A DNA stretch of 64,000 nucleotides, taken from Bilabrum cf. latius (lineage: Eukaryota). Location of the stretch: contig OZ237741.1 of the NCBI GenBank assembly GCA_965178125.1, positions 1,054,001-1,118,000 on the forward strand. The letters run 5' to 3'. Position 1 is the first letter of the stretch. Each line of letters begins with the position of its first letter. The position numbers and the translations under genes were made by a program. Shown piece by piece: positions 1-64,000 of the stretch. Below the pieces are notes generated by a model. It had not been told where the DNA came from. It saw nothing but the letters and a program-made list of their open reading frames with translations, and made no database searches.

Positions 1-696
1 GGTGCGAGAAGCAATTTCGCTGGGCATGCGCATGCTGTCTCGGCTATCAATGCGGCTTGCTCCTGCTACTCGTTCACTTGGACCGGCTCTACTTGAATTG
101 GCGGGGAGTGATAGATCATCCCACAGTTTGTGAGCCCATACGGTTGCCATCTGTCGCCCGCGATCATCTGAGCCCGCGTGGGGAGGTAGACAGCACTAGC
201 TGGTGTCCCACCACAGGGGCCACATGCAGAGCAACAGCGATCTAGCCAGGGTTACCACGCAATGGCTGTTCAGGTTCTCGCCATTCACGGTCAAATGGGA
301 CTCATAGATGCACTCTTGGCAAGGCATCCAGTTTACACGATTGATGTCTTTCGTTTGACCCGCGGACTCAACTTGCGCCTCTAAACCTGGTTGGCTAGGA
401 TCAGCACCCGACTGCTGCGAAGAGCCATCTTCAGTGCGTGAAGTCGCCCGAACATCTTCAAGTATCGAGGCCCAAGCTCGAAGCCAACAAGATGATGCAG
501 CAGAAAGTAGCGCAAGGCACACGACAAGACCAACAACGGCTGCAGGATCTGTCGGTCGAGCAGACATGATAGATGGTGCATCACCGGCACCTAAGGCACG
601 AGGCGACAGGCAGAACCCAAATACCACGACTGCAAATAATGCAGTTGAGACGGCCCAGCATGAAATTATTGGCAAATTGCTGACCCCTACTGCCAT
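1..696 (-). CDS. 5' part of a membrane protein paralogous to the 1562-9625 gene (runs off the window)
   Basis: ATG at 696 (MAVGVSNLPIISCWAVSTALFAVVVFG) aligns with the start of the 9625 gene (MTQDASSLPIKIFWAIVTALFAVVVLG). Nucleotide similarity is clear over ~190-690 versus ~9125-9620. The frame stays open to base 1 through one TAG (196-198). Confidence 0.8.
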
Positions 697-988
697 GACT
701 TGCGCTACTTCACTTCTACTGTCCGTTTGCTCTTCACCAGCTGCTGTGTGCCGGGTCAAGATTGGAGAGTGGTGATTCGAAATCAAGTCATGAAGGAGAA
801 AAGTACATAAATTCAAAACGAGCTTAATTTTCCCCGACAACACCGCAAAACTAGCGCAGCAACATCTCACCTCTCGAGATCACCGCAGCCCATGCAGATA
901 TGACATCCAGTTCCTGCACGAACCAATTACTCTAGTTGAATTGCACGAGCAGTATAATCACAATTTCTGAGCTACAGGCAATGTTTTG

Positions 989-1612
989 ATGGCAATCGAG
1001 AGAGCAATGGAGGACCAAAATCACAGAAGCTTTACGTGTCTTCATCATTCATTTCTAGACGGTCGCAAGGCCGTGCGACGTCCGGCGATAATCTCTACGC
1101 CGGACGAGAACGGCATCGTGGACGTCGTCTTTGAGCTGAACGGCGAGCAAAGAAAGATCGGTGTCACCGACGCTGAGTTTGCCAAGTCTGGCATGGCAAA
1201 GACGGTCAGAAAGGCGGACAAGGGCAAGCGAGGCGAGCTCGGTGCTCCCATGCCCGGCGTGGTGGTGGCTGTGAAGGTAGCGGTCGGAGACGAGGTCAAG
1301 GAGGGTGAGCCGTTCGTTACGCTGAGCGCGATGAAGATGGAGACGGTGGTGGGTGCACCCACTGACGGTGTCGTGAAGGAGGTATGCATCGGGACCGGCG
1401 ACACGGTGTCGGCCGGCGACGTGCTCGCGGTTGTGGGGGATACCGAGTTGCTTGTGTTTCATTATAGGGATATACCTAGTCTGGAGCGACAATTTATGCA
1501 CATCACCTCTGTCCAAGGCATCGTATTGGGAGCCCTGCAGCCAAGCTTCACGTGCTGTCAATCAGGTTTCGCCATCCTAAGAAGACGTCCGCCCAGTCCG
1601 ACTGGACTCTGA
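989..1612 (+). pseudogene. Isolated C-terminal fragment of pyruvate carboxylase (biotinyl-carrier domain); gene fragment or small stand-alone biotin-carrier ORF
   Basis: ~1090-1440 encodes VVFELNGEQRKI...KADKG...GAPMPGVVV...LSAMKMET (biotinylated Lys motif), typical of the pyruvate carboxylase C-terminus. An in-frame TGA lies at 968-970, with no carboxylase or transferase domains upstream. The ORF tail overlaps the 3' end of the opposite-strand gene (1562-1612). Confidence 0.6.
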
Positions 1613-4600
1613 CATGCCATTCCCACCCGACTCGCTAAGCTCCTGCACACTTGGCAAAGAAGCAACCGCAAAGCGACCCCAAGGATGTCGACCAGCTGGC
1701 TTGTGCCCTCCTGCGGCCTCTGTAATGGTCACCACACAACGGGCTGACGGATCACGAGCACCTCCTGCTGAGCCAGCGGCGGTAGCTGCCGCTTCATGCT
1801 CGCTGCCTTGTGCATCATCGAGTGGCAGACCGCTAGAGTCAGCTCCACGTACCGATCCACCAGCCCCTTGCCCCCGCAGCCTAGTTCTCATCTCTTCTTC
1901 TTTGTCAAGCAGCTTCACCCTCGCTTCTGACCTACTCACTCCAAGGGCCTCCAAATCTCTGTAGGCTGCCTGCTCCGCAGCAAGTTGTCCGATGACGACG
2001 TGGCGACAGTAGTACAAGCTGGACCACAGAATGCGGATGTGAAGCCTCCGACTGTACACCTCCAGGATGGCTCGCTCCTCTGCCTCCCGAGATTCCCGAA
2101 TCCTGTTCTTGCGCGCTTGCTTGGCTGATAGTGCCGATGTGGCTGCGTGTTGCTGCTTGACCTTTGGTACGCTTCCAGGCGAGCTGACTGCAGGCTAAGC
2201 TTCAGTCGCACCGATGCAATGGTGCGCAGCTGGGATCGAATCAAGCACTAGCCCGCTGGTTGTAGCGGTATTTGCACTTGATCCAGTGCCATCAGGAGCA
2301 CGATCGATGTCCCAGCGCTATTGAATCAATCGCTGCAGCTGCTGCTCGACTTCTGGATCGCTGGTAGCACCGGGCGGTCGCGTCACAGTGAGGCTTTTGC
2401 CAATTCGAAGCACCTCTCGACGCACTACTGCAGCGGCTGAGTTCTCGGGCAGCAGGAATGGATGCGCTGCCAAGATGCCTGCGTCGTACCGCAGGCTGGC
2501 AATAGGCTCCAGCAGCCCACGGAGCAGGTCCACACATTGAGGACTGATGTCTCGTGGGAGCATCCTCCAGCTCACGCGCCCCACCCGTGCAGCAGCAGCT
2601 TGCTGGTTGGCCGTGAGCCCATTGAACGGGAGCTTACCAGACACGAGCCAGAAGAGCGTCACCCCAAGCGAGAAGTAGTCGCTGGCCTTCTGTCCCTGGT
2701 GCATGAAGAGCTCAGGGGCCATATACATCGGAGTGCCGGCGATGCCTGCAGCAAAGGGGCGCTACTCGCGATGGATGACATCGCCATTTCGTGAGGCTCT
2801 GTCACCGCTTAGCTGATTTGGTATCAATGAAGACGACCGCCCAGAAGTCCTACCAGATGCAGGTGCATTGCTGCTTGCTTCGGGTAGTTGATTCTGGGCT
2901 GCGGCAATATCAACACTTGCAGGCCTCGTTAAAGCCTCGCCACCTGCTGCGCTGTCATCAGCTGGCTCGGGGAACAGGAAGCCGAGCAATCTGCTGGATG
3001 CGGCTGCAGCGACACCCTCGAGATCTCTGTCAGTGGATATATGATCATTTGGCATGCTCAAAATGAACGATCGGTACACATGCGATGCGTCTTGTATATC
3101 GAGTGCTGCAGATTCACCTGGCCTAACTCCCTCATTCTACATCTCAAATGCTGCGCCGGCGTCCTCAAGCTCGACCATACTACCAGCAATACCACCACCA
3201 GTTGATTTGACGAGAACGACTGCGTCAAACAAATCCGGCTCCTCCCGCAGAAGGGATCTGCCCTGCAGTATTGAGGATACTGAGGTGACTGCCAGCAGCC
3301 CACTGGAGGCGGACTCGAGCAAGTTCGCCAGCCTTGATGGTGAGACAGCATAAGGTGATGCTACATCAGACGTGCCCGTAATCAGCAGGACTGCCATGGC
3401 ACACTTGGGATAATACAATTGCACTTGAATTCCGTCCAAGTCTAATCTTCTAGTGGCTGCACTCGAACCAAAGCCCAGAGTCTTGCAGCTATTGTTGGCT
3501 GCAATGCCGCCGGAAAGGTTCAAATCTGCTCTTGGCAGCAGCAGCGGCAGGGCAAGCCTGACCTCGTCGTGGTGCAAGAGCTCCTGGGGTTGCCACACCG
3601 CCATTGCGCCCCTGGGATCTGAGCTGAAGCTGTGCCCAGGTACATTAGTCCTTGATACTCCCGCCCATTGGGACGAACGAGACGACATGAAGTCTCCAGA
3701 GCTATCACGGGTCACGCTTGCCAACTCGGGTTCAATTTCAAAGCTGCCGGAACCAATGGCTCCAGACCCACTATCTGTCGACGTTACAGAATTGTCGCGA
3801 CGAGCGGCTGATGCTGAGTTGATCGCTGGAATCTACACGGCCAATCCAAAGTCAATCAGCCGAGCATCCTGCATGCTGGACATGAGCACATTCGAGGGCT
3901 TCAGGTCCCGGTGCAACACCCCGGCGTGATGCAGCTTCGCAATCGTCCTGGCCAAGCTCCTTGCGATCGAACGCACATCCGATTCATCGACGCGCCACCG
4001 GCCCGGCTAGCCACGCACGAGGTCGCGCAGATTGGAGCCGGTGACTCGCTCCAGCACGATGGCAACTCTGGGCCCATCCACGACGACCCCGAAGATGCGG
4101 CAGGGTCCCGGGATATTCTCAGCGGCTGCCCGCGCGAGTGTCACCACCTCGTTGCGGATGACGTCAGCCCGCAAAGATGCCCGCCTGGCTGTGTGGCCAG
4201 CCGAGAACGAGCGATCCGAAAGCTCGCCCGGATTGCCGCTGCGAACGCTGATCTTCAGAGCCACATGCTTGCCGGTAGCTCGGTGCTGAGCGGCGTATAC
4301 TTTAGCAAATCCACCCTCGCCCAAGAGCTTCAAGAGCTTGAAGTCATCAAAGGACATCCACGATCTGCTTTCAAGCACAGCATTGGGGGAGTGGCCTGCA
4401 CTAGAGCGCTCTTCGGCATGGATCGCCCTTCCAACTACATAATACGCTGCAGGCGTAGTGGTATTCAACGCAACGCTGTTTGGATGCGCGCCCTGAGTAT
4501 CGCCGCACGAAGCTCCAGCAGGGCAGGCTGACATATCCACAGCCGGTACGGAGCCGTCTTGGATCAAGATACGATGCACAGTTTTTGACGATCCACCAGG

Positions 4601-7600
4601 CCGGGTCTCATGATTTGCATCGCCTACCTACAGCAGCCACGCGGCCACTTCCGTGCGCGCCTGACTGCCTTCTCCAGCCCTAAGGGCTACCGACAGCGCA
4701 TCTCGCCAAGCCCTTGCCCACGCAGGTGGCGCAAACTGCTGCGGTTGATCATCACCAGGAGCTGGGACCTCAGATACCCTCCAAGTGCCAGGCGTTGTTT
4801 CCTCAACCATGCACACTGCATACGAAGTACCATCCCAGTGAAGACCTGCCGTGACTGCTGGAATCAATGGCAGTGATTGGCTGCATTGCAGCACACCTTC
4901 CCACTCCAAGCCAACAGCATTGGAATCCGCGCAGTCATCTCTATGCATCATGCAAGCAATCCAGGGATGCTATTCGCGAACTGCCACAGCCACTGCGGGA
5001 GACAAGCTGACGCCCGTGGCATCTGCATGGGTCGCTTGTGCTGATCCAGATATCGACATGCTGCTGGCAATGGCCCCACCCGCACCCTGCCCACTATCCC
5101 CGTACTCTACATTGACGGGGTCGTGCCCGACGAGCCAAGCACACACTTCGCCCGTGGCGATACCGATCGAAGGTACAATCCCTACGCGCATCTACTCCAG
5201 CGTGTGGCGCACAGAAGCAGCCAGCTGGCATGCCCCAAGCACAGCCAGAGTGCTGGCATTGCTGCCTGTAGAGAGCACACTATCAGTTTGCACCTCGGAT
5301 TGACTGTCGAACCAGCCGAGCTGAATCGTGTCAGGCCCCACACTGACGCGAAGTGCTCCGAACTGCGCACACACCTGGTCGATTGACCTGCCGATGCGTC
5401 GAAACAGCGCTAGGGTAGCAAGGGGCCCCGCAAGATCGCTGACCTGAGCAAATCGGCGCAACCGCAAGGTCAAAATAGCGCCTGCGCCAAGAGACGCTGG
5501 TTGTCCGGCTATGGGTAGTGTCTGTTGGGGGGAGGCAATATCACCGAAACGCGATCCAGAGGTTGCGGTCAACTTGGCCAGAACTTGTCTTGGCATCAGC
5601 GTGGTCGCAGCTCGCTCCATCAGCTAGCGCTGCTACTCCTGACTCTTGCGTGTGCTCTTCGCAGCATGCCTCACCCTTGTCAGAAGGGCAAGCGACTCGC
5701 TGCTGTCGATGAAGTGCGTCAAAGCAAACTGCACGACGTACACCGATGCTACTACAGTATTGGCGATTCGCAGCACATTGACGTTGCTTTCGGCTGCGTC
5801 ACCAAGAAACTCGTTGCACCTGTCAGGCGCTGCTGCTGGGCCAAGGATCCAGCTGCGGATTGCAAGGTATAGGCCGTTCCCGGATGACATACCTAGGCCG
5901 ACCACGGCGAGAACTGTCCATACAGATGCCCCACAAGTTTTAATTATGCTGATAGCAAACAACATGGTCGCAATGACAGATGTGTTGTTCAACAAGGTGT
6001 TGTTCTGCGCTGTGCAAGTCGCAACGACGATGTCTAGTCGCGTCAGCAGCTTGTTGGCGGCTTGAGCAATCGTCGTAGCTGCAACAAGAGCTATGCTTTC
6101 TCTCTACGAAATGCTACCACAATGAGCATATGTGTATGCACCACGTGCAACCATCACTATGCTGACGAGTAACATGGGAAGGTAGATGAGGAAGATAGGG
6201 AGCCAGCCCACTGATGGGGAGTCGGGCGCAACACCGGCCTGCTCGTCAGCAGCTCTTTCAATACGATTCATGATCACGGCCCCTAGGATGCAATCGATAA
6301 GCTAACCAACTCCAAGAAGTCCAGCAATTGCTGGAGATTCCAGCACCATTCCTGTAGAGGCGTGGTAGCCTGGAGGAGAACCCCACGCACCGCTGCGCTT
6401 TTCACATTTGCGAGCCGAACGGTCTTTTTCGCTGCCTGCCTGAGGTAGAATGATAGCAGACAAAGGCCCAAGCCTCGATTCTATAGCTTTTGATGCGGCA
6501 AATCTACTCGATGTAATAGTTGTCATCGGCAAGAGTTGTGCGGTGCTGTCCTTGCTGCTACGATTTGCACCGTGCAAGAACCGCACCGCCCAACGGGGCG
6601 GGAGCCACTCACTCGGCGACCTGGGTCGGACAGTGAGCTGGTATGAAGCGAGAGCGTCCTTGTCAATAACACTGAATAGAAGCTCTCGAATGGATCTTGC
6701 ACACTCCTGCGCAGAGATTGTCCGTTCTGCCGTTGGACTGGATTGTTGCTTGCGTTCGTCAGCAAAGCACAACACGACGCACTATTCACCAGTTTCATCC
6801 ACTGGCCCACGCCTCTCGTGATGATGCGCAAACTATGCAGCAGCAGCCGCACCACCGGCAGCCGTAGTTGGGCTTGACCCTCCTGGCGTGTGTCTCTTGT
6901 TTGCCACACCGTGACTGGCAGACTGCACCCGATTCTTGGGCCTGCCCTACTTCAGCATGGAACGAAGCGTCTTGCATGCCGCAAGCACTCGCTACAGGCG
7001 CTTCAAATCGAGGGTATAGCGTAAACGGTTCGCCTCCTACTCTTCCTGATGGACATCATGAGACACGATTGCCAAGTGCCATTGCACGGCCGATTCGGTT
7101 GCCGCTTGCATGGATTTGAGCGTGCTATCAATACGGTCACACGTCCTGTGACCCAACACAACGTGGCACACTGCATCAAGCTAAGGACCCGCCCCAACCA
7201 GAGTAGCACCGCACAATCGCTTGGCCTCGTCCATGCCGCCCCCGAAGGCGTGCCACTCTTGCGGCTGCTGCTACTCGCCCAGCAGTCCGATGGACATCGA
7301 GCTCTGCGAAGAGGACGGGTAGGACACTCCAGCAATCAATGTGTAGTCCGTTGCATCACGCGACCTAATGGACGCAGATAGTGCGTGCTCGATCGCGCAC
7401 AGGCACTGGAACGCTGTCACATCCCGCTGCTCGCTGTGGCCAAGGATAGGAGCCTGCCTCGCTGGTGTCCTCAAGCCGATGGCTCCAATCCAAGTAGCAG
7501 ACTAGACACAGGGCAATGCTACCGCTGCAACGCTTGTATTGTCAACTGTTCTGGGCATGGGGGGAGAATTTGCATGAGTCTCTGGGTGGTGTGGCACCCA

Positions 7601-9625
7601 GGTGTCGATTTTGTCCATGGAGAGAGCTTGCGCAAAGTCCTGAAACGGAAACTGCGCAAGCCACGCAAGCGACTGCCTTTGTGACCCATTTATCAGTCCC
7701 ATAGCGGTAATGGGGATTTCCAAGCCGTGGCCTCGACCCCTGACTTGCATAGCCGAACGGAACAGCTCTGAGGCCCTGCGCAGCACGCCAGCGCTCTGCA
7801 TCGCCGCAGCCCTGGGCTTTAGGTTTTGGCCCAGAAAGTCGTATCGATCAAAGAGTGAGCAGAGGGCTGCCTGTCCCTCGCGAGCATCTGAATGCTCTGA
7901 ATGGATGCCAGACGCTCCAACAGATGCGTCCGGTCGTTCTACATTGCGAGTCAGTCGTGCTGCCAGAACCACAGGCTTGGTCTCGAATGCAGTGACACCA
8001 GCATCTAGACATTCCTGCGCAAATGACGGCACCTGGCTCACCACTGTGCGCAAAATGGCAGTCTGTTGCCGACGGGCCGCAATGATAGACTGCAGTAGCT
8101 CGGACTCGGCCATCTCAGCACGCCATCGGAGGTACACGGAATCGATGCCCATGGCGATGGGCAATAGCAGTGAGTCAAATATTGTGATTGAGAGAAGAGA
8201 CAAGGTGATACCGAGCCCGTTCAGTCCTACAGGACTCGCGAAGTCATACCTCGTGGCAGCTGGAAGCAGGTCAATGTCCCCACGACCGAGAGGCCAGGCA
8301 TCCCCAAGGCTGCTGATCACTGCGTGTAGCACTGCTGTCCAGATCGTGTAGAATAGCTGCAGGCCGACCCATGGAATAGCCGCCCTATCATAGTCCAGTC
8401 TGGCCAGCGCGGGCCATAGAATCCACATGGAGAGGACCTTATTGCTGCCCCTACCTGGCCCAACGAACAGGTCCAGTGCCATGCCCAGGATCGTGAACAG
8501 GACAAGCGTACCGACTGGGATGCCAATCATCCCGAGGAATCGGATCGCTTCTAGTAGTCTCTCCTTTGGCATCACTGCAGCGCGCCTTTCGAATTGTAAT
8601 GCACTGCTAGTTCCACTTGTGGCGGCGTTGCGCTGACCCTGCCGTTGCCCAAATGTCGGCGACTCTGCGACCATTGATTCGCTGGACGCAGCAAGTCCTA
8701 TGCTCTACGTGCGCTCCTCGCTATGTATCTAGTTAACGGTCGGCTTGCCAACGTCACCGGAAACCTCAAATGACCTTGCTTCAGGCGCCAAAGCGTGCGT
8801 TGCCGTGTCGTGCTGACCAACGGCAACCTCGCCTTCGAGCATGGTCTCGTCAACGGACTCTTCAGAGGGCAGAACCTGGTGTACTCCTGCCAAGGAAGCT
8901 CGCTGGGGTGATTTTGACTGACGCGCGGCTCTATTACCTGGCTTCGTGCAGGAGGAAATCGCTTGTGGACCGTGTGGCCTAGTGGAGCCATGCCGCCTAG
9001 CTCCGACCACTTGCGCGCTAGGACCACTTTTACTGGCACTATCGGGGTCTGATAGTTTCTACCATAGCCTAATAGCCCAACGGACCGTCATTTGTTGGTC
9101 CGTAGCACCTGCAAGCGGACAGCACAAGCTAGTGTCCCACCACAGGGGCCACATGCAGAGCAACAGCGACCTTGCCAGTGTTACCACGCAATGGCTGTTC
9201 AATTTTGCGTCATCCTCGGTCACATGGGACTAACAAATACACTCCTAGCAAGGCATCCAGCTCGCATGGCGGGTGTCTGGCGTGGGATTCAGCAACTTGG
9301 GACGCTACCGGAGCTGGCGTGAGCGGTCAGCTTGCTACTGGAGGGCAGAGCCACCATCCTCAGCGCGCAAAGTCCCCCGGCCGCCTTCCAGTGCTGAAGA
9401 CCAAGCACGAAGCCAGCATGAGGATGCCGCAGAAATCAGCGCCATGCACACGACAAGAGCCGGAACGGCTGCATGATCTGTCGGTCGAGCAGACATGATA
9501 GATGGTGCATCACCAGCGTTAAGGACACGAGGTGACACAGAAAACCCCAACACTACCACCGCGAATAAGGCAGTTACAATGGCCCAAAATATTTTTATTG
9601 GCAAGCTACTGGCATCTTGTGTCAT
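1562..9625 (-). CDS. ~2687-aa multi-pass membrane protein with degenerate class III nucleotide-cyclase-like domains and a C-terminal Ser/Thr kinase with a large activation-segment insert
   Basis: One frame from ATG 9625 to TGA 1562, interrupted only by 29 TAG codons (manual count) and by no TAA or TGA. Hydrophobic clusters lie at ~9430-9590, ~8150-8530 and ~5700-6200. Cyclase-like segments include ERAATTLMPRQV...LRVSVGPD...SIGIATGEVCAWLVG. Kinase motifs are GEGGFAKV, VALK, HRDLKPSN, DFG, GTPMYMAPE and DYFSLGV. Confidence 0.85.
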
Positions 9626-10099: not shown

Positions 10100-11896
10100 T
10101 CAGGAAACTCGCTTTCGCTTGGAGCCCATCGGTCCCTCGACACCATCACCGGCAAGCTCGGCATTCTTTACGTCGAGCACGAGCATGTGGCCGGGCTTGT
10201 GCGTGATCGCGACGGGCAGCATGGCGTTCTCCAGGGCGGCCTGAGGAGTTACTCCGCATGCCCAGAACACAGGCAACTCGCCTTCTCTGATCTCAACAGG
10301 GTCACCAAAGTCGGGCTTGCTCAGGTCATCGATGCCCAGTGACCTCGCACCGCCCACCTGCACCGGAGCACCGTGCACCCTGGGGAACTGCGAGGTCACT
10401 TTCACGGCCAGCTCTGCCTGCTCTTCCGTCATCGGGCGCATGCTCACTACCAAAGGACCCCGGAATGGACCCGATGAGGTGCACTGCACGGTGGTGCGGT
10501 ACATAGGGACGTTGCAGCCGGCTTCCACGTGTCTCACGGGGACCCCCGCGCGCAGCAGCGCCTCCTCGAACGAAAATGAGCAGCCGAGGAGGAAACCCAC
10601 CCACCTTTCACTCTGCCCACCTGTGCTAGTTTTGGCTGCGGACGAGGAGGTCGCCCGACTCGGGCTGCTGCCGATGTCAAGGCTGCTTGCTGTTGCACCT
10701 GCCGGGCGGTCCACTGCGGAGCTGGAGTTGGCCCCAGCGCCGGAACACGGGCCCGAGCTTGAGCCTGAGCTTGAGCTTGAGCCTGAGCTTGAGCTTGAGC
10801 TAGAGCTTGAGCTAGAGCTGGAGCCTGAGCTGGAGCTAGACAATGGAACAGGCGGGGCAATTTCGGAGTCATCCACAGCTGTTTGGGAGCTGCTAGGACC
10901 GGCGTCGGCTCCCCGCATCCACTGCTCCACCTCGGCTGCACCCCCGTCGGCTGACTTGCGACCACCTCGCCAGAGCACGTACCTAGGCACGGTCGTGCAA
11001 ATGCTCGAGTACTCAGTCTCGCGGATGAGAACCTTCGCTTGGAGATCCTCTGGGTTCGCCGCGGGGCCAACCTCCTCGATGAGTGGGCACGGCTTGGGGT
11101 TGAGCTAGCAGAAGCGGCGGAAATCGTCGGCGTGAGACTCCGGCAGGATGACCAGGTTTGCCTGCGCGTAGCCGTGGCAGTGCCCGCACGTCGGCCCAGT
11201 GAACTCGCCTCTGGAAGCTGCACGGCGGAGATCTGCCGGGGCTGAGAATGGGCCGGCAGCAGACGTTCCGCTGCTCGATGCAGCTGCAGCAGCTGGTGCG
11301 CCATGCTCATGCTGCTGCTTTGGTGCTTCACGGCGCCTACGTTTCGAGGGGCTTGGACTACTCTCCAGCTAAGTGACAGAGGAAACGATATCGTTCACAC
11401 GTTTCACAGTCGCGGCAGGGAAGCTCTAATATACGCTCTCTGGGGCCACCGCGTACACACCAGCAGCTCCAGCCCCGACCTTAACACCCGTCGCTGCCTT
11501 TCCCGATGATTTGGCTTCGAGTCGAATCACATTGACGCCTTCAGCTTCTAGCATAGCGACTTTCTTTTGAATCTTCGCCGATTTTGGGTCTGTCTCACCG
11601 GCAAAGCCTCCAATCTGGCGGTTTGCAGCCACAACACGGTGACAGGGAACCCTGGGAGCAAACGGATTATTTTTCAAAGCCTGGCCTACGCTTCGAGCCC
11701 CTCCAGGCGGCATTCCGAGGGCATTTGCAATGGCCCCGTACGTGGTCACTTTAGAAGCTGGCACCGCATGACAAAGCAGCAGCACTTTCTGCCGGAAGGC
11801 GGATAAGCCTGTCTTCAATCCAATAGAAACTACCTCGCTTGGGAGTATTCGATCAGAAATGTCCCTGCCTGGAACGATGCCATGCCACAGCGACAT
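10100..11896 (-). CDS. 598-aa fusion of an O6-alkylguanine-DNA alkyltransferase (MGMT/Ogt) domain and a DUF1445 (YcsI / D-glutamate cyclase-like) domain
   Basis: N-terminal KVTTYGAIA...[10 protein letters not shown]....VPCHRVV is the MGMT active site. The same frame continues through TAGs at 11426, 11369 and 11105 into [11 protein letters not shown]...[39 protein letters not shown] and FWACGVTPQ (DUF1445). Ends at TGA 10100. Confidence 0.88.
10755..10840. repeat. Imperfect (GAGCTT/GAGCCT)n hexamer repeat encoding a poly-Ser insert in the DUF1445 domain
   Basis: Visible hexamer run; translates as [10 protein letters not shown]... on the coding (-) strand. Confidence 0.85.
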
Positions 11897-45066: not shown

Positions 45067-45359
45067 TGCTCCAGACTCTGCCTAAGTTGCCCCCGTTCTT
45101 GCGAGGTGTTCAAGCCGGGAAGAGACGCGACTGCATGTGATGATCGTGGTACCAGCGGGGCAGCGTTGCCAGCACAACAGTTTTCATTATATTCAAGATG
45201 CCCAGACGTAAGGGTAATAAATCTAGCAAAGCCCAGAAGGGGGCGGGCAGGGGCTAGGGGCAGCCAAAGGTCGCTCTGGATGCCAAGCCAGAAGCGACGG
45301 CCGTAGATGACCTGATTTCCTTCGATTCTGGCGAATCACCGGCCTATGAGGACGATTAG

Positions 45360-51300: not shown

Positions 51301-52274
51301 GGGTGAACGGGAGTGCACCAGTCGCGGCGCAGTCTGGCTAGCAGAGCCAGGTTGCACCCGCAGGAGCTGCGGGAAGCAAGGCTCCCGCCGGTCTCCGGGC
51401 TCGCATCGGCTCAACCGGCAGCCACGGCAGCTAGAGCGTCGGCCTTGAGAGACAGTCCAGCCTGGCGCTGTGGCAGGGAGGAGAAGGCAACTCGCAGGAG
51501 GGGGGGCTTGAAGGAGGGGCCTCCCTCGAGCTGGGTCCCGCCGCTGGTGGTGGCAGCGCGGGTGCTGGCCGTGGTGCAGCGAAGCAGGGGCAGCGTGATG
51601 ACCTGCTGGCGGGTAATCCGGACACTTTCGGTCGCACCAGCAGCAGCAGCGGCGGCGGCAGCGGCGCCAGCGGTGGGAGCAGGAAGCACCAGGCGCGTGT
51701 TGACGTGTACCTCTTCGGAGATGGGGCACCTGCCCACAGGCTGGTCGCGAGCTCAGAGGGACAGAAAGCCGCCACTAGTGGGAGCCGCGGCGGGCAGTCT
51801 GGCCCGCGTCCCTCGCCTTTGCCCAAGATCGAGAGTGAGGTGGAGCACCCAACCCCCGCAGCCTTGCTCGAGGAGCGCACAAAGGGCGCCATGGATGCAG
51901 ACGGGGCGGGCAAGGGGCCAGTGGGCTCACTGGTGTCGAACGTACAGCCCTATTTGGCGAGTGCGTGGGGCTGGACCAAGACGGGAGCCGTGGCGGCGGG
52001 CGCCATCACTTGCGTTGTGGTGGTGAGCGTGGTGTCGGCGGGGGCAGTGGTCGGTCTGGCACCAGAGGAAAGCCTGAAGCGTGCCGGTTTTATGATGTGG
52101 GGCAGCGTGAAGGATCTGATGAGGGATGCCGCCGACAAGGCCATGGCAGTGGCAGATCGGGCCAAGGAGGTAGCTGACCGAGCGAGGGCGCACGCGGACC
52201 GAGCGCGCGAGCACGCCAAATCAGTCGCCTAGCAGGCCAAGGATCGTATTTCCAAGCACACCTCTCGGTACTGA
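45360..52274 (+). CDS. NMA111: ~2269-aa Nma111/Ynm3-like HtrA-family serine protease with PDZ-like regions and a C-terminal hydrophobic segment
   Basis: Exons 45360-45823 and 45929-52274. Motifs TG|FVVD..LGLVLTNRHV, DPLHDFAF, EKLSILRGTLSRVDRAAPEY and GGSSGSPV (His/Asp/Ser triad). A second degenerate protease-like segment reads KGTGIVVSRELGLVLVSR. Eight in-frame TAGs; TGA at 52272-52274. Confidence 0.85.
45824..45928 (+). other. Spliceosomal intron (105 nt)
   Basis: GTAAGC...TCTTGCAG; its removal gives the conserved TGFVVD. Confidence 0.92.
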
Positions 52275-52522: not shown

Positions 52523-55500
52523 ATGTGAGAGTATGCTACTTCCATGCCCTTCCACAAGCGATTGGGCGACAGGGACGTCTGCAAGAATTATGGGACAGCC
52601 TCTATGTTTAATGTGCAGGGAAGGCGCCTTGCTGCGCCAATCTGGCGCGGGAAATCTGCAAGCTCTGGAGAATATACTGGACAGGGGGGCCGACCCGAAT
52701 TGCTAGGACGCTGTGAGACTTTTCATTCCGTAATTGGGTGCTTTAGCGATAAATGCTGTGCAGGAATGTTTTCCCGTCGAACTTCATCGCACAACTCGCA
52801 GAAAACTGGCTACACGCCGCTGCACCAGAGCGCAAAATTTGGCCATTCTGAGTGCTGCCGTTTGCTGCTTGATAGAGGAGCGAATATTGCATTCCGCACC
52901 GTAAGAGTTGGTTCAGACTTGTGCCCACGCCTGCCATACTTCGCAGGGATTGCTGTTCAAGAGCTGTGATATCCCGTTCTTGACCTCGCAGAAGTTGTTG
53001 TAGCTCTCTGCGCTGCATCTCGCGGCTAGTACTGGCCAAGTAGATTGCATACGCGTACTTGTATCATCAGGGGCACACACAGATGCAGCAGATGCAGTGA
53101 GATATTTTGCAGTCTAGCAGTGGTTCAAATCGCGATTCGGTGAGACAACTGCGTGATCTGTTTCATCTCTATCCGCGCAGAATGGCGATACTCCATTGCA
53201 CATCGCGTGCTGGCGGAATAAGCATGCCAGTATAGTCGAGCTAGTGCGGCTTGGTGCAAACGTATCGGCAACGAATAAGGTATGGCAACGACAGCCAAGC
53301 AATACATAAAAAGGTCGAACCTCGCCAGTTTACCAGTTTCCCGCTCTGGTTTGTTCGTTAAATCATGATCATGCTTCGTAGGAAGGCAAGACAGCACCAG
53401 AAGTAGCTGATGGTCATGGGCACGCTGAGGCTGCTGCGCTGTGCAGGGTCGATCGAAGCGCAGCAAGTGCCGCAAGTGGACCAATTCGGCGTGCACCCGC
53501 AGCAGCCACCGGCGCCGGTCCCGAGCAGCCATCTGCTCGCACCCCTCCTCCACCACGTGGTCCCCGACCAGATCATATAACGCCTGTCACGCCAGCATCA
53601 GGTCAAACGGCGTCAGCGGGGCCTCAACAGGCGAGCACCATCCGGCCGTCGCCAGCTCCGCCACTGCCACCCTCGATGCCTCGCCAGTGTGCTAGGCCTC
53701 CGCCCATTCATGCTGAACTATCTCGCGCATAGCAAGAGCTGAGAGTTCAATCTGCAAGAGTCCATGCATTGCAGGGACAGCTGAGGACGATGGATGTCGA
53801 GATGGCCGCCAAGGAGGCCCAGGCCAAGCAGCAGCTGGAGGACGCAGCGCAGCGACTGCAGGCCAAGGAGGAGGAGATGGCCGCCAAGGAGGCCCAGGCC
53901 GAGCAGCAGCTGGAGGACGCAGCGCAGAGACTGCAGGCCAAGGAGGAAGAGATGGCAGCAACACAGGGTGCATATGACACAGTGCGCCGGGCAAGCGAAT
54001 AGCTCACCGAGCAAATGATCGAGCTTGGAGACGAGAATCGGCGACTCCGCAAGTTGGTGCCAAGTACTCTGCTCGAGCGTGCGTGCGCGAAACTGTGCAA
54101 GGATTGGCAGTCTGGTCAATCACCCATGCACCCGGGTTTGGCACAACTGGAGGATGGTTCCATCACATCCACTGCAAGGGAGCCGCTCGAGATGGTGCTT
54201 GCATGGAGACATATCGTGCAACGCTTCGGAAGTCAGCTGCTTCGACAAGTAGGCACGCTTGCGCTCAAGTCGCAGGAGGTAGCCATGGGCATAGTGTCTA
54301 AACAATGCGAGCAGCACAACGAGTACATCCACGTTATTGAGTGGAAGGAGCTCCCACAAAAGGACTGGTTCGCTGGGCAGAGGGGACTGCTGCAGTACAC
54401 CGAATCGGGTGGGGAAGCTGGCGGGCGAGGCGCATCAGTGCTTGACCTCTCGTCTGTGCAGCCACCGGAAGCGCTAGAGAGGGGGCTTGCTGACGGGCGA
54501 CTAGACATCGTGTGTACTGCTGCCAATCCGCGCATCGCTGGCGCAGTGGCTAGATTTGAGCCACGGTAGCGTCCGAACGACAGAAGCCTGCTGGAGATCG
54601 AAAAGGGCCGAATCCCGCCGTTGAACATCAAGACAGGAAAGGAAGGCGCCGTGCAAGGCGTAAATGGCTTTGTATTTGCTGCAGAAATGGCAGTAGATGG
54701 GGACGATGAGGCAGCCGTGCTGCTCAATGACAAGCCACTGCAACTGGCGCTGAAGGCCATCCTCCCAATGCGCCGGGCCAACCAGTACCAGATAGACTTT
54801 ACGAAGGACCATCGTTCGGAGTGGATAGGCCCGACCCTGGCTAGCAAACACCCTAACCTTGTGCCGCTGCAATCATGGTTCATCGGTTCGTCCATGCTCA
54901 TCGTGCCATGGATAGGGGCGCCTTTTCTGGAGAGTGGCGTCGGTGTGCGACGGACCACGTGGATAGCCATGCCTCGGTATGCGGACAGTCTCAAGTCTGC
55001 GGTTGAGGCGGTACCATGCACAGGGCCCAGGGAGGCTGCACTGTGGTTGCTGTAGGCACTTGAAGCGACTCAGCACATGGTGTAGCGCGGGCTGGCTCAC
55101 AACGATGTGAAGCCAGACAACTTCTTCCTAGCAGGCGACGGCCGTCTCCTGCTAGGTGACTTCGGGTGTAGCGGTTGTCTATTCAGCGGTGGTGTGCTGG
55201 ACGGTCTGATGCAACGGTACGGCAGGACCATACGTGATGCCCGTCTGCTGGAAGATGCGCGAGACGATGGTTCAGGTCCAGCAGTAGGAGCCTCAGCTGC
55301 TGCAGACGCTGTGCCAACCTCGACTAGCCGTACAGAGGCAGAGGTATTCAGGGGATCTGGACCGGGGTCCAAGCACATCGCGTGGAGTTCGTCTGGGATG
55401 GAGACGCTCATGCCACCGGGCGGCGCACCGGTTGCGAAGGCACCCGAGCTGTTCGCCATGTCGCAAGGGACGCTACAGACCGACGCGAGGGGAGATCGAC

Positions 55501-56312
55501 TCGAAACCATGGCTCAGGCCTACGAGATGGCGGACGCGTGGGCGGCAGCGCGAACCATCTGGGAGGTTGTAAGCGGAGATGATCCAGCGAGGCAGGTCCC
55601 TGACAATTCCATGCTGTACGACAGAGTTCCTCGACTGCCACAGGCTGGGTGGGAGCTGGAAGCCATCCTGAGAGGGCTGCTGCAGTCCAGGCCCTCGAAC
55701 AGACTCCCCCCTGCGGTTGCCATACAGGCGCTCAGGGCGCTTCTGTACGGCCCCGACAATTGGCCAGAGATAGAACAAGCGGCCGTACAGCACAGGAGGC
55801 GGATGGAGTCCCGTGTACCGCCGAGCGGCCGGCCGGGTGCAGGTGCAGCACACCCGGAAGCTGGCCCAGCACCTGGTGCTGGGTCAACGCATGGCGCGTC
55901 GGTTGGGACACGCGGTGCAGTAGGTGCATCCGCTGCTGCTGCAAGTGGGGGCGCTAATGAGGCGGAATCTGCGGCTGAACTGCACTGTGAGTCGTCGTTG
56001 CTCCCTTACGTTGAGATGCAGCTGTGCGAGTGCGCGACCGCGGACAGCAAGACAGGTGTTGAGGCAGCCACTGCATCGCTCAGCTTTGGCTTGGTAGGCC
56101 CAGCAGCGCGTGTGCGGCTACCTGCAGGCAGCTGCGCGTATGAGCAGTTCTAGTGGGGCCGGCGACGGACTGTCCGGGGGGAAGCAAGCATGTGGGATCG
56201 GCAGGTCCGTAGGCAGTTGCTCACGCGTGGACGGTCCGCCTCGGAGGCGGCTGTGCAGTTAGAGGCCGACTGCGCTGCACTGGTGCGAGCAACGAGGGAG
56301 TATGCTGAATGA
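52523..56312 (+). CDS. Ankyrin-repeat, coiled-coil, PINK1-like protein kinase
   Basis: Exons ~52619-52712, 52802-52900, 52992-53096, 53181-53279 and 53382-56312. Ankyrin motifs GADPNC*D, GYTPLH, SALHLAA and GDTPLHIAC. Kinase motifs LALK, HPNLV, LL*ALEATQHMV*RGLAHNDVKPDN, DFGC, APE and YEMADAWA. TGA at 56310-56312. The start is uncertain (52523 split ATG, or 52533/52590/52611). Confidence 0.82.
53799..53958 (+). repeat. Tandem 75-bp duplication encoding coiled-coil unit EMAAKEAQA(K/E)QQLEDAAQRLQAKEE
   Basis: Two near-identical copies plus the start of a third. Confidence 0.9.
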
Positions 56313-56596: not shown

Positions 56597-58357
56597 ATGT
56601 CGTCGTTGATCCATGTCAAGCTGCCATCGGGTGACAGCTTTGATATGAAGTTAGAGCCGGAGTGCACAGTCGGAGATGTCCAGAAAATGGCTGCCACTGC
56701 TGAGGGTCTGCCGGAATGGTTTTCACAGCATTTGCTTCTGTATAACGAACATAATGCACTGGAATTGTCTGAATGGCCAGACAGCTTCCTCCGAGAGCAT
56801 GTGTTGGGCGATCGACCTTGCGTGGCCGTCATCGCTCCAGAGTTTATTGCCAGATCAAACAAGCATTCCTTGGCCTCAGCAGTGCACGCGAGCAGTGCTA
56901 AGCATAGTGAGCGCATTCGACGCAATACTGCCAGATCCTCTTAGTACAGTTCCGAAGAGCTTGAGCTGTCAGCAAGAGCTGCCATGTAGATGGGGAATGC
57001 AATTCATGGTGCCGTTGAGAACGCCTTGGAACGCATGCATGGCGGAGTGCCGCCGGAGGACGCAGCGAAAAAGCTTGGAGCAATTATCAAAGCGCAGGCA
57101 GGCGTTCTTCACGAATTTGAACAGGGCAGCATCGCCGAGCTAAGGAGCCGCTTCGCTGCGATCGTCTCTGAGACGAATAGAGTTGATTGCGAGGCGGAGC
57201 GGCAGCTCCCACGCGAGCCTGGCGAGACTCTTAAACGCTCCCTTTCAGAATGGCACCGCCGGGAAGCATCGGTGCGGCTGTATTTGTCTGCATATGCAGC
57301 TTGGCAGCGCTGTCTGGTGGAGCTTGATGCCGCCGCGAACCCGGCTTTTTCCAGGTCGAACGAGACCGCGGGGTATGCCAGGGTTCGCGCCGGCGATTTA
57401 TTCCCCGATTTTGGCGCGCTGCTAGGATTGCGATTTGGAGGACAGTCGTCTAGTCACTCGGCTGCCGTCTGCGAGGCCGAGAACGGGGGTGTGCTAGGGA
57501 GTGCGACAGATTCGTTCGAGTCTTTCAGGTTTCAACGCGAAGAGATGCAACTCAATGGCAGCAGCAGCAGCAGCAGCAACCCCGGCTGCCGTTCCACCCT
57601 CCTAGTCCTGTCGCGCCACTTCGGGTGACGCCCGTGACGGCAGCACGTGGCCGCCCTCCACTCTCGCAGGGTGGAGCTGAGCGGCGCGGGCTGCCGCGTC
57701 ATCGTGGGAAGCTTCTGTCCCGACCTCGCCCTGGCCGCACAGTGGTCTCGGGAGGTCGGTGCCCTCGAATTCGAGCACGTCATCAGCCCAGCAACGGAAT
57801 CGATGAGTCCAGAAACCTCTACAGGTGAAGCAGACGGTTCGGGAGCTTCGGGTGCTGGTGCCACAGAGGCTGCCATTGGTGGAGCTGGAGACAGCTCTTC
57901 GCCGTCTCACTCATCCGCCTCTCCGGCAGCATTAGGTACCGCGCGGCCCACCGGAAAGGCTGGGGCCCTGTACACGTGCCTGGGTTTGCGTCGGTCCGTG
58001 GCAGGCGTGTGGCAGCCATCAGCTCTGGAGATGTACGGCGACGTAGCCGGGCGTGGGGAGGAGCTCCACTCATCACACGGCCAGGATCCGCATCAGCTCG
58101 GGGGCGATTTCCTGGTCGGGCCGGACGGCCGGCTCGTGCTTGCCTACTATTCGCAGGACTCGATGGACCGTCCCTCCGTCGATTCGCTGCTAGCGGCCGC
58201 CAGATCAGTCTGCAAGGCACTCGATGAGGACAAATCTGAGCTTGAGGTGTCGTTAGCTCCCGCAGATCGCCCTGCTGAGGTTGCTGCAGCGAGCAGCGCG
58301 TTCCGAGTGCTCCCAGTGGGTGATGAGGCTGCTTCGACTGAGGAGGTCGCGAAGTAA
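56597..58357 (+). CDS. SELENOL: 586-aa selenoprotein L-like thioredoxin-fold (AhpC/TSA-like) protein with UxxU motif and an N-terminal ubiquitin-like-looking extension
   Basis: One frame with TAG at 56942 and 56987, and TGA at 57626 and 57635 in LLVLSRHFG-U-RP-U-RQHVAAL. It continues through LY..LGL and QLGGDFLVGPDGRLVLAYYSQDSMDRPSV to TAA 58355-58357. A SECIS follows downstream. Confidence 0.9.
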
Positions 58358-59277: not shown

Positions 59278-62200
59278 TCAATGCTAGTGGCCGCATTCAG
59301 TGCAATGTGCAGCCCCTGATACTCGCCGCACTGTGCACTCTCCACACCTCCCCTCCGGATCAGTGGAGAACACAGCAAGGCCTTGCTGCTGCCATTTCAA
59401 TATCTACGACCGAAGCCGCTGCGACAGGCAATAACCGCACTGGGAGCAGAAAAAGACCAGGTGCGGCTGCCGCTCGTGACACGCAGGGCATTTAGTTCGC
59501 TGCGGTTGCGGCCGAGCTTGTGGTTGCGCAGGCTGTGCCGTTCCAGACACATTCCCGGTGCTCCCTGCACTGGCAGTAGACTAAGTGGCGGCTGCTCCTG
59601 CAGCAAGGCCCCCCACTGCGCCTGAAGAGTTCGGTGCCTTTGCTGCTGCTGAGCTGGCTTCAGGCATTGATGCGGCTGCAAGTGGCGCCTATGCCGGTGC
59701 CAGAGCCGGTGCTGGTGCAGATGCAGGTGCAGGTGCAGGTGCAGGTGCAGGTGCAGGTGCAGGTGCAGGTGCAGGTGCTGGTGCTGGTGCAGGTGCAGGT
59801 GCAGGTGCAGGTGCAGGTGCAGGTGCAGGTGCAGGTGCAGGTGCAGGTGCAGGTGCAGGTGCAGGTGCAGGTGCAGGTGCAGGTGCAGGTGCAGGTGCAG
59901 GTGCAGGTGCAGGTGCAGGTGCAGGTGCAGGTGCAGGTGCAGGTGCAGGTGCAGGTGCAGGTGCAGGTGCAGGTGCAGGTGCAGGTGCAGGTGCAGGTGC
60001 AGGTGCAGGTGCAGGTGCAGGTGCAGGTGCAGGTGCAGGGGCTGGAGCAGGGGCAGGGGCTGGAGCATCAGGTGTTCGTACAGCCGTCGCAAACTCAGTC
60101 CAGATGCGATCCGGGTCGTGCCATGGCTCCAGCGCCATATCATCATCGTCGCCATCTTCGACACCACCATTGCCGACATTTGCACCACCAGCTTGCTTTA
60201 CATCTGCATGAGCAGAGTTTAATGATACACCTGATTTTGGAGTGTCTGCGTCAGATGGAGCAGGCCTGCTAACGCTGGCAGCCTGGTCTGTGGCTCCAGC
60301 CCCAAGTCCGACCGATAGCTGCATGTGAACCCCAGCGGTCAGATGCCTCTTGTGCAGCCCGAAGCCCACCGTTTGCAAGGCTTTGAATGGATCCCGACCA
60401 GCCTACTGCGCGTCACGGCACTTCTTCAGTGCCTTGTGGAGGGGCACAGCTACGGGAATAGGTGTGGGCCAGAACTTCGGGGCTGCTTCGCTGAGGCTGT
60501 CCTCATTGGCGTGCTTTCGTGCCTTCAGGCCCAGCTGCCTTAGGACGACGGAGCTGAGCTGTTGCTGCCGCTGCTGCTCCTTGTCCTGCGTACTGATGCC
60601 GTTGTTCCCGTTAGGGAGCTCTAGCCCGAGATTAGACCGGTTTGAAATGACGGCGTGCACTGCGTTTGGGTCTGCCACTGGCGATGCTGCTTTCGACTCA
60701 CCACCGGCCTGCGAGGTCTGCGCAGTAGCTGTGGCACCTGACACCAGCTAGAGCCCTGCCTGCAGCAGCCGCTGTGGCAGCACCACGAAACGCTCCAGCG
60801 GGGGCGGCACCTTGACCTCAACGCGAAGCGACCACGGCCTGGCGCCGCTCGTGCCCGCGTTGGGCTGCAGCAGGCTCACGGCCGGGACTGGCAGTTGTGG
60901 TGGCTCCATAGGCGCATTGGCAGCTTCGTGCTCGCACCCGGGCTGGCCCAGCGTGTAGAGAGGGCCGTACCATGAGCTCCAGAGGCTCAGATTCTCGCTG
61001 CTATCGGGCACTTGGGCCGGCGCGCTACCTAGCTGAGATACGGCAGCAAACTGCACAGAGTACCCGACCCCCGGTGACAGGCGACTGACGCGAAGCAGGG
61101 CAAGGACATCAGCAGCATCCAATGGACCCGAATGCTCCCTTGTCCCTGACTGGTCCGAACCAGCTCCTGAGCTTGGCCCTTTGACAGGACCCGATTCCCG
61201 CGCCTAAGTACCAACGCAGGTAATTGTACCTTCAAGTCCCGACGATGCCTTCATCGCGCTCAGTGCGAGGCTACAGCTGCGGCAGGCGTCAGCCAGCGTT
61301 GGAGTCCGAATGGTGGTTGAACCGATCCGAGCCGGTTCCCCCGCACGCCTGTGACGGCCCCACTCGACTACCACACCCGCAGGCAGCAAGAACAGATCGG
61401 CATCCCCGTTTCTAGCAGAAGGCGTCGATACGGCTGGCTCGGACTCGGATGCTCCCACCTCCTCTGAAGCATTACCGCTGTCGTCTTGGCGAAAGTTACC
61501 CTCCCGCATCTCATTTGATAGTTTCTGAAGGGCAGCCGATACTAGGTCTTCGGACAGACACGGTAGCAGCGGAAGGCCAATGGCCAGCTCGCGAACTCCC
61601 CTCCCGACCGCAACTAAACCCTATGCCTGGCTCGTCTGTCTCATCTTTGGCACACGAATCCTACCGTACCGCTCCGGCAGCCACCTTGAATGCCCCACAG
61701 CGTTGCAGAGACGAGCGGTCACTACCAGGCCTGGAGTGGTGGCTGGAACCCGCTCTAGCCAGCATTCGACGACGGACCCGTCCGGTTCCTGTTCAGCGCT
61801 GCCTATATCCATTTCTAGTTCGCTCCATTCGGAGCCAAATGTTGGCTGAGGTTCAGAGTCTCCATTGGGCTTCGTGTCGTCGGCGGAGCCACCGCTGCCA
61901 TGCGCCTCCCGCGCCTCCCAGCCGTCCACTTCTTCCTGCTGAGCAGCGCGCCAGCGCACCTCCATGCTGCGTAGTGGTGCGGCATGGTGCGCCCTGTCTC
62001 GATGAGGCAGCTGGATGGTAACCGGCCAGCTAGTAAAACCGCCGGATGCTGCCCCATCGCCGGCGCTGGGGCGGGTCCGAAGCTTGGAATGAAGCGCAAG
62101 CGATCGACGCGCGGCATCCCGAGGCACGGCCAGGGCACCGTCCTGGCCAATTACGCCCGCGAGTCCGAGCGCCAGCAGGTCAGTCGCATTCATTTGCGTC

Positions 62201-64000
62201 GAAAACTCGTGCAGCTGGGCAGTTGCAAGAGCGTCGCTGCCATCAGAGAGGCCAGTAGCCGCAAAGAGACCAATTTTGGTTGGCGATGCGGTCGGAGGGC
62301 CGAGGGTGTAGCACGGAGCACTCCATGGTCCCGCGGGCCCGGCACCCACCTCATTGGATAGGCGGGCGCGCACAGCGACGAGGAGGTCGGAAGGGATCCC
62401 AGTGATACCGGCCGTTGTTGTGCTCCTGTCCGATACCGAGGCAGCGGTGGCATCAGCGGGTGGAAGCTCGACGTGGTGAGGATTCGGGAGGGCAGAGGGC
62501 AGCTCGGGGCCGGTGTGCCCGATCGGTACCTTGCAGGTCCCCATGGGCTCCTCTCCAAGCACTCCCTGAGGCACGCGCCCCTTTCCAAAGAGCGATGGTG
62601 GGGCGGCCTGCCACTCCAGCAGAACGTGCGTGGCCGCGCCGGGCAGCACGGACTAGAACGACTCCCTGGCAGCAGCAGGGTGCGGGTGAACTTCGCCACT
62701 CTTTGATGCTTCGAGCCTAGCCCGCAATGCACTCGAGGAAGAAGACAGAAGGTCTGGCGCCCTGGATGGAGCAGCCGTGGGCCGCCCCAGCGTAGCCACG
62801 CAATCGCTGCATGGCGTTTTGGGTCCCTCCCCGGCGGCGTTGACGGTGGCCACAGCAAACTCGTACTTCGTCTCAGGGCGGAGATCACCCACGACTGCTT
62901 GATTTTCAGCGCCTTGTGACACCCCTTCGCCGTGATTGACCCCAGTGTGCATGGGGCCACTCCACTCGGGCTCTTTGCCCAATCCAGCACCGTCCCGGCC
63001 GGCTGCAGCAGCTGCACTGTTGCCTCCATCTTCGCTCGGCTTCACGGGATTGTCCCGCGCCGACTCGCCAGTTGCCCTTACACCATCGATTGCCGGCCTC
63101 CAGTAGAGCATGTACCCAGTGGGTGCGTCGTCATCATCCCCGACCTAGGCAACCCCCCAGTTGACGGTGATGCTGCTGCTGCTGCGGCTGGCGGCAACCG
63201 GGCTAGACGCCGGTGGTAGAGTCGGGGGTCCGAGCGTACGGATGCTCTCGCTCCAAGGGCCCGGAGGTCCCCGCCCGACCGTGCTTATTTCAGACAGTCT
63301 GACCTGAATGTCAGTGCCCGAAGGGAGGTGCTCTAGTCGGCCTGCCAGCGCCTGCGTGATTCCAGCAGCGGCTTGAACGCACGTATCCAAGGAAATGTCA
63401 AGTGTCCCACCCCTGCGAAACCCACCTGGCGTGCCGCCGCCATCTCCGTCCTCTCTTTCCGCTGCTTTCCATTCAAGCTGAAACGCAACGGCCGGCGATT
63501 CGATGGCGGAGGGCTTCCTCGCTGGCCACCCAACCACGAGGGCACAGCGCTCTCGATGCACCGAGACAGGCCGACCGCCCGGGTGCAGGGGCGGACCAAG
63601 CGTGCGGAAAACAGTGCTCCATTCGCCCGGCACGCCCCTGCCTGCCCCCGACTCGCCCAAAACACGCACAATGTACGCACGGCCGGGGGTCAGCCCCGCC
63701 AGCTTGGTCGCAACGGCGCTCGAGGACACCGTCACCGCTCCGCACGGGGGATCGGGGTCCTCCGTGCTGACTCCAGACCCCACCTCGGGGCGGTCTCCCC
63801 GGGCCACAAAGGCCGCCATGGCAGTCTCGGCAGCCAGGAGTCGGTCGGCTGGCACGGCATCCCCGTCTTGGATTCCTGCTGCAGCAGCATCACTAGCACC
63901 AGCACCAGCACCAGCACCAGCACGAGCGACAGGGGAAGACCCTCGATCGTCCATGCCTGCACCAGACGCGGGCGCCTGGCCTCCTTCAGACTATGACAAG
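59278..64000 (-). CDS. 3' part of a large fibronectin type III repeat protein with an (Ala-Pro)n stalk and C-terminal double zinc ribbon
   Basis: FN3 motifs GLTPGRAYIVRVLGESGAGRG, DLRPETKYEFAVATVNAAGEG and RLSPGVGYSVQFAAV. The C-terminus has CPAC...CSQCG and CGEC...CTECG. One frame with only TAG interruptions to TGA 59278; the 5' end lies outside the window. Confidence 0.82.
59708..60066. repeat. (GCAGGT)n hexamer microsatellite, ~50+ units, encoding (Ala-Pro)n on the minus strand
   Basis: Near-perfect run at 59723-60039 with degenerate flanks; in frame with the FN3 gene. Confidence 0.97.

Follow-up and report, generated by a model that had tools for sequence, protein, structure and literature searches.

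The 64-kb stretch of DNA analysed here in full (the window; 56-68% guanine plus cytosine (GC), without N) is nuclear DNA of a GC-rich, intron-poor and very compact eukaryote, and its genes are interrupted in frame by TAG codons. Ten gene bodies (g1-g10, 17,902 codons in total; Table 1) were defined in it, lying in strand clusters (minus strand up to 44 kb, plus strand from 45 to 58 kb, minus strand thereafter), and two GT-AG introns were identified, in g6 (137 nt) and g7 (105 nt). The results presented below make it likely, to a good degree of confidence, that UAG is a sense codon in this genome, most likely for glutamine (Gln), and that UGA ends genes, with UAA probably also a stop, as in the genetic code of NCBI table 15.

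In-frame stop codons and gene ends

Within the ten gene bodies, 118 TAG codons and no TAA or TGA were found in frame, whereas the remaining two frames over these stretches contained 286 TAG, 119 TAA and 653 TGA. Without constraint, approximately 60 TAA and 327 TGA would have been expected in frame (probability of observing none approximately 1e-26 and 1e-142, respectively), which excludes chance as the reason for their absence. If TAA were used in the proportion of CAA to CAG, 42 in-frame TAA codons would have been expected, relative to none seen in the 17,902 codons. TAG made up 118 (15%) of the 786 codons read as Gln (CAG, CAA and TAG). Under the standard code the longest stop-to-stop open reading frame (ORF) in the window was 821 codons, and with TAG as a sense codon the longest ORFs reached 6594, 2703, 2148, 1903, 1573 and 1000 codons, with Pfam domains spanning TAG sites inside them. 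Reading TAA as sense gave a longest ORF of only 827 codons, the added length coming solely from non-coding DNA upstream or from an intron, and reading TGA as sense yielded many ORFs overlapping on both strands and nothing more, because GC-rich DNA does so. The observation that the genes are interrupted only by TAG, from which an earlier reading of the bare sequence (the original prediction) had set out, was thereby confirmed. Its counts for the two longest ORFs were reproduced (29 TAG in 1562-9673 and 32 TAG in the 19,785 nt of 24617-44401, both on the minus strand and both without TAA or TGA), and the six TAG codons quoted in it, at positions 20536, 17517 and 11105 (minus strand) and 55053, 55083 and 52704 (plus strand), all stood in the correct frame.

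The ten long genes all end in TGA, in agreement with the predicted use of UGA as a stop. The ends of g2 and g5 coincide with the ends of their homologues, and transcript-like contigs (see below) extend 91-141 nt beyond the TGA. In g6, the TGA at 24617 that terminates the 19.8-kb ORF falls inside the 5' splice site GTGAGC, and the true stop is therefore the one at the end of the last exon, the two exons when joined reading NPN-LYANGKVCLS. The predicted tally of 10 TGA and 2 TAA gene ends was matched by our own, the two ORFs ending in TAA being weak as genes. With regard to UAA, which had been predicted to be retained as a stop, it can be stated directly that the codon is not sense (none in frame, relative to 42-60 expected), and the sole TAA that a TAA-sense reading would pass through sits in the GT-AG intron of g7, whose exons when joined read STGTG-FVVDSRLGLVLTNRHV; that UAA terminates genes is only presumed.

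Table 1. Genes, exons, introns and other features of the 64-kb window, with in-frame TAG codons and gene ends
Feature	Position	Strand	Description	In-frame TAG	End	Basis
g1 tandem paralogue, 5' part	1..879	-	Runs off the window	1		
g1	1562..9625	-	Multi-pass membrane receptor-like protein kinase, 2687 codons	29	TGA 1562-1564	Pfam Pkinase, E 4e-38
g2	10100..11896	-	Fusion of MGMT-type DNA-binding domain and D-glutamate cyclase, 598 codons	3	TGA	Pfam, PDB alignments
g3	12276..17939	-	PTPDC1-like dual-specificity phosphatase with long low-complexity tail, 1887 codons	21	TGA	Pfam
g4	18068..19918	-	Secreted right-handed beta-helix protein, 616 codons	3	TGA	Pfam, 39 homologues
g5	20026..22245	-	N-acylglucosamine 2-epimerase with inserts, 739 codons	5	TGA	Pfam
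g6, last exon	23664..24483	-	Remainder of UBC domain, and tail	1	TGA 23664-23666	Pfam UQ_con
g6, intron	24484..24620	-	137 nt, GTGAGC...CGCAG; splits the UBC domain			
g6, exon 1	24621..43975	-	Giant BIRC6-like protein, ~6452 codons	32		First half of UBC domain matches human BIRC6 (PDB)
g7, exon 1	45198..45823	+		3		
g7, intron	45824..45928	+	105 nt, GTAAGC...TGCAG, in phase			
g7, exon 2	45929..52274	+	Large protein	7	TGA	
Ankyrin-repeat exon	TAG at 52704..52706	+	GADPNC-TAG-D, in a multi-exon gene at ~52.3-53.3 kb	1 (as positioned)		
g8	53676..56312	+	PINK1-like protein kinase, 878 codons	6	TGA	Pfam; best PDB matches are PINK1
g9	56597..57628	+	Protein without known family	2	TGA	
ORF ending in TAA	57638-58357	+			TAA	Sub-threshold Pfam match, AhpC-TSA_2
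ORF ending in TAA	58587-59396	-			TAA	No family match
g10	59278..63954	-	Repeated modules and long (AP)n tract, 1558 codons	10	TGA	

Residues aligned with TAG, and a diverged relative

TAG was translated as X in the query sequences and the residues carried by homologues were then counted, so that the query was unable to bias the assignment. In g2, the TAG at 11105-11107 (FRRFC-TAG-LNPKPCP) aligned with Q in 67 of 79 bacterial homologues (the others being R 4, H 2, T 2, L 2, E 1 and N 1), and with Q in both chains of the PDB alignments. TAG141 of g3 (17517-17519, IINL-TAG-EPGEH) aligned with Q 113, T 31, E 5 and A 1 among 150 representative homologues, and TAG570 of g5 (20536-20538, CPQ-TAG-LEW) with Q in four of seven remote homologues, the rest carrying L, P and T. 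At these three conserved columns Ser was found in 0/79, 0/150 and 0/7 and Leu in 2/79, 0/150 and 1/7 homologues, respectively. In the PDB alignments of g8, TAG460 corresponded to Q in both human and Tribolium PINK1, and TAG470 to Q in the human and A in the Tribolium protein; both TAG codons (55053 and 55083) belong to the helix preceding the catalytic loop. The four nearest of the 39 homologues of g4 carried Q, E, Q and Q at TAG517. The family motifs that the original prediction had given for the D-glutamate cyclase, the PTP domain, the N-acylglucosamine 2-epimerase and PINK1 thus held against real homologues; its ankyrin site was confirmed only as an in-frame TAG at 52704.

The column counts were calibrated on three alignments, a conserved column being one in which the top residue reached at least 50% among at least five sequences. 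Out of 479 such columns where the query had a standard codon, the query carried the top residue in 345, and conserved columns headed by Q numbered only 12. TAG fell on a Q-topped column whenever the column was conserved, and since such columns are rare this is not attributable to chance. The composition around the TAG codons was also compared: within two positions of TAG, 7.6% of residues were Gln (TAG included) and 8.3% Ser, the corresponding values being 6.8% and 8.4% around Gln, and 3.6% and 14.6% around Ser. The neighbourhood of TAG resembles that of Gln and not that of Ser. In g3, a polyGln run is encoded as CAG TAG TAG CAG CAG CAG, with TAG TAG at 14232-14237.

A relative of g6 was found in public protein sets as seven ORF fragments (labelled P0009-P0015; 173-462 aa, from three Logan contigs), which tile parts of g6 with 79-95% identity. 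Six of the seven end one residue before a TAG of the window (codons 1425, 2024, 2478, 3864, 5123 and 5345), and the seventh ends where the window carries Gln (3578). Ends at these positions indicate that a standard-code gene caller halted there, and hence that the TAG sites are shared and that the relative reads through them. As judged from these fragment ends, the breaks are probably TAG, and the relative would share the code of the window. A relative of g5 (671 aa, without break; 83% identity by BLASTP, 85% in the alignment) has K, E and Q at three TAG sites of the window. The original prediction of UAG as a sense codon, most likely for Gln, is thus borne out by the conserved-column counts, by the breaks in the ORFs of the relative and by the transcript-like contigs described below.

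Transcript-like contigs and rival explanations

The stretch is contained in seven public runs from three studies, four of which were compared over positions 1501-21500. In the DNA-like run X1, contigs cross intergenic DNA (9485-16281, and from 16472 onward) with a uniform depth of 9-10. Contigs of run X5 stop at gene borders, those over g2 and g4 covering 10005-11906 (coding sequence 10100-11896) and 17977-19928 (coding sequence 18068-19918), respectively, and those over g3 covering 12141-14517, 14491-16281 and 16472-17969. The X5 contigs showed no differences from the window, with the TAG codons unchanged, and their depth varied by gene from 7 to 46. Contigs of X6 and X7 end at 19925 and 19923, at most 5 nt from the 5' end of g4 in X5. 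From contig borders and depths we read X5-X7 as RNA-derived, no run being recorded as RNA. If this is so, the mRNAs of g2, g3 and g4 retain their TAG codons, and this speaks against editing. The implied untranslated regions would be approximately 10-30 nt (5') and 91-141 nt (3'), and with such short untranslated regions the packing of the genes would be extremely tight. The neighbouring transcript-like contigs of g3 (5' end at 17969) and g4 (3' end at 17977) lie 8 nt apart.

Several results weigh against UAG as Gln in a code with UAA and UGA as stops, and the rival explanations draw on them. Five TAG columns (g3-103, g3-90, g4-59, g4-180 and g5-16) were variable and not rich in Gln: g3-103 held N 39, S 38, D 25, T 17 and H 16 (n = 141), g4-59 held A and P, g4-180 held D, H, Q, N and G, and g5-16 held D in three of four sequences. 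When all columns were given equal weight, Gln was barely ahead of Glu (summed log-likelihood -23.5 versus -23.7). Eleven TAG sites inside the ORFs of the relative aligned with Q 4, S 4, E 2 and K 1, several of the Ser, Glu and Lys residues standing in otherwise identical contexts; in the same alignments ordinary Gln codons stayed Q in 96 of 114 cases and Ser codons stayed S in 270 of 308, so that the TAG sites are unusually changeable under whatever reading. In the comparison with the g1 paralogue, the residues opposite TAG were S, A, Q, E and D, and the TAG codon that the paralogue itself carries stood opposite L. These alignments could be accommodated by a code in which UAG is sense with the meaning Ser (as in Scotinosphaera) or another residue, for example Glu or Lys, which is nevertheless considered quite improbable, as Gln is the top residue and Ser is absent at the three conserved columns, human PINK1 has Gln at both g8 sites, two TAG codons stand inside a CAG run and the surroundings of TAG are Gln-like. 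Moreover, the codons CAG (Q), TCG (S), GAG (E), AAG (K) and TTG (L) are each one base from TAG, which makes these replacements explicable as point-mutation exchanges, and the residues of the relative fit such mutations at loose sites. TAG would accordingly be found preferentially at loosely constrained sites, and would turn over quickly via one-base exchanges with CAG, TCG, GAG and AAG. Because this point-mutation account is itself inferred from the alignments, a small probability was kept for Ser or another residue.

Further results on the opposing side concern termination and decoding. TAG occurs 4 codons before the TGA in g1 and 1 codon before it in g10, and TAG within the last five codons of two out of ten genes compares with 0.33 genes expected (P ~0.04). 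These codons could be former UAG stops that are now read through, residual use of UAG as a stop, or chance. A double meaning, with UAG read mostly as Gln and still terminating at some ends, or a recent change in which old UAG stops are read through, is unlikely in our estimation: none of the ten genes requires TAG as its stop, the transcript-like contigs run 91-141 nt past TGA and not past TAG, and the near-terminal cases are only two. A special termination context was ruled out, the base following TAG being C in 35% of cases and that following CAG in 33%. The case for TAA as a terminator comes from two ORFs without good family support, and a PDB search with a TAA-ending ORF returned nothing. 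The tRNA that would decode UAG was not seen, there being no tRNA gene in the 64-kb window, and no Rfam matches were obtained in the window, which does not encode eRF1 either. Run X5 was rated 'RNA? (probably DNA)', and the lack of any run recorded as RNA leaves some space for explanations in which the TAG codons are not translated as such, namely pseudogene lesions, assembly errors, RNA editing to CAG, or readthrough under the standard code. All of these together are given next to no credence. Decay or error is incompatible with 118 TAG, no TAA and no TGA; the same TAG sites are kept in the 79-95% identical relative; independent runs from three studies showed no differences in long contigs, including the gene-sized transcript-like ones; and up to 32 readthrough events per protein would not be viable.

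Known codes, decoding and the source of the window

The code of NCBI table 15, in which UAG means Gln and both UAA and UGA remain stops, has been reported for the fornicate Iotanema spirale and for three ciliates, Protocruzia tuzeti, Hartmannula sinica and Trochilia petrani (PMC5304391, PMC11687900). The window shares with these lineages the reassignment of UAG only, the TAG codons at conserved Gln columns, a UAA that is not sense and gene ends in UGA, and the case adds to the known table 15 code. What sets it apart from the table 15 hosts is a GC content of 56-68%, the grouping of several genes at a time on one strand, GT-AG introns 105-137 nt long, the presence of a PINK1-like kinase and proteins that run to thousands of residues. 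Partly on general knowledge, we take such DNA to be unlike a ciliate macronucleus or the genome of an anaerobic fornicate. Reading of both UAA and UAG (UAR) as Gln (NCBI table 6) is known from many ciliates, ulvophyte green algae, Hexamita, Streblomastix and Amoeboaphelidium protococcarum (PMC11687900, PMC5304391, PMC6299283). Those codes are alike in turning a stop codon into Gln, presumably via a mutated tRNA-Gln, and unlike in that here no TAA was found in frame where approximately 42 would be expected. Reassignment of UAG only, to other residues, has been described for the rhizarian exLh (Leu) and for Scotinosphaera (Ser) (PMC11687900, PMC5304391), which are likewise non-ciliate nuclear genomes with UAG decoupled from UAA; unlike in these, the conserved columns of the window point to Gln, with the few Leu and no Ser counted above. 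Context-dependent codes, in which a reassigned codon serves as a stop as well, are those of Condylostoma, karyorelictids and Blastocrithidia (UAA). Here none of the ten gene ends needs TAG, but two of the ten genes have a TAG 1 or 4 codons before the TGA.

UAA and UAG are nearly always reassigned jointly. Few lineages are known to have nuclear codes with UAG alone reassigned, and a single fornicate is the one known non-ciliate with UAG = Gln (PMC11687900, PMC5304391). No described GC-rich non-ciliate with reassignment of UAG only to Gln was found in a search of full-text literature that did not extend to subscription journals and supplementary files. We put forward, tentatively and at somewhat below even chances, that the window represents an independent and undescribed origin of UAG-only reassignment to Gln, in a GC-rich, intron-poor and compact eukaryote outside the ciliates and fornicates. 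The change would be young, with fast turnover of TAG between the 79-95% identical copies and with some former UAG stops left 1-4 codons before UGA. For decoding, an anticodon CUA reads UAG and not UAA, and eRF1 recognises stops via motifs of its N-domain, which are altered in stop-reassigned lineages, those with UAG reassigned included; for Iotanema a change at Thr32 is reported, among the positions in contact with the third base of the stop codon (PMC5304391). In the simplest mechanism, UAG but not UAA would be decoded by a tRNA-Gln whose anticodon CUA differs from the usual CUG at a single base, and eRF1 would no longer recognise UAG while keeping UAA and UGA, through changes in the N-domain motifs. 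If true, a non-ciliate case would be an independent data point on the capture of UAG by a CUA-anticodon tRNA with an eRF1 that keeps UAA and UGA, and in a GC-rich genome AT mutation pressure is excluded as the driver. It also matters for annotation, as a standard-code gene caller cuts such genes into pieces; in public protein sets the relative is represented in this way, a single gene being split into seven fragments. The spread of a newly captured codon could be studied through the fast one-base turnover of TAG sites between two diverged copies.

With respect to such copies, run X1 holds second copies 85-96% alike. Its depth was 20-27 over g1 (1501-9500) and 9-10 over 9500-21500, and over g1 its contigs were short and came in variants of 85-96% identity. 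The pattern suggests that the genome is present in two diverged copies, collapsed in some regions and apart in others, and the relative seen in the public protein sets may be the other copy within this organism, or a sister strain. As for the taxon, the original prediction had offered 'possibly stramenopile', for which no support was obtained: the named best matches of the g3 PTP domain were spread over Sorochytrium (a blastocladian fungus), Thraustotheca (an oomycete), Chlamydomonas and Ancoracysta, at 42-47% identity. Amoeboaphelidium protococcarum was considered as the source for its diverged second copies and receptor-like kinases, the latter reportedly present in that species. Its genome has 40.5% GC (PMC10608142) compared to 56-68% here, so the window is not from this organism, and it was ruled out. 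When a metagenome was scanned for the homologue that is 46% identical to g4, a single contig was obtained, L081 (21.7 kb fetched; 74% GC), which is packed with long standard-code ORFs and is probably bacterial. It was rejected as a relative of the window organism on its GC content and standard-code ORFs, and is uninformative on the spread of the code. From this match, the family of g4 may also occur in bacteria.

The remaining observations concern individual genes and the window as a whole. The N-terminal region of g1 (8700-9625, minus strand) is 60% identical over 216 aa to the tandem paralogue just downstream (1-879, minus strand). A PDB search with the g1 kinase at a strict cut-off gave no match, and both TAG sites in its kinase domain are, in our own reading, at variable kinase positions. 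A PDB search with the giant g6 protein aligned the UBC part alone (BIRC6) and offered no usable TAG column. The cyclase part of g2 shares 56-66% identity with proteins from Gemmataceae and further bacteria, and to judge from these identities g2 may be a gene of bacterial origin that later acquired TAG at a conserved Gln; its MGMT-type domain retains the PCHRV motif. In g3, the tandem repeats GEFPGLQ and GELPSAVAGLQ lie at 16281-16472 (minus strand), where the X1 and X5 contigs break. The N-terminal part of g7 we take to be a trypsin-type (Nma111/HtrA-like) serine protease, a name given by eye from the translation. The plus-strand ORF at 57638-58357 starts a few codons past the TGA of g9 in the same frame (57626-57640), and the two may form a single gene interrupted by an intron or be separate genes. 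The long (Ala-Pro)n tract of g10 is at 59.6-60.2 kb (minus strand). Plus-strand GC skew is negative from 1 to 44 kb, positive from 44 to 60 kb and negative past 60 kb, and tracks the direction of transcription.

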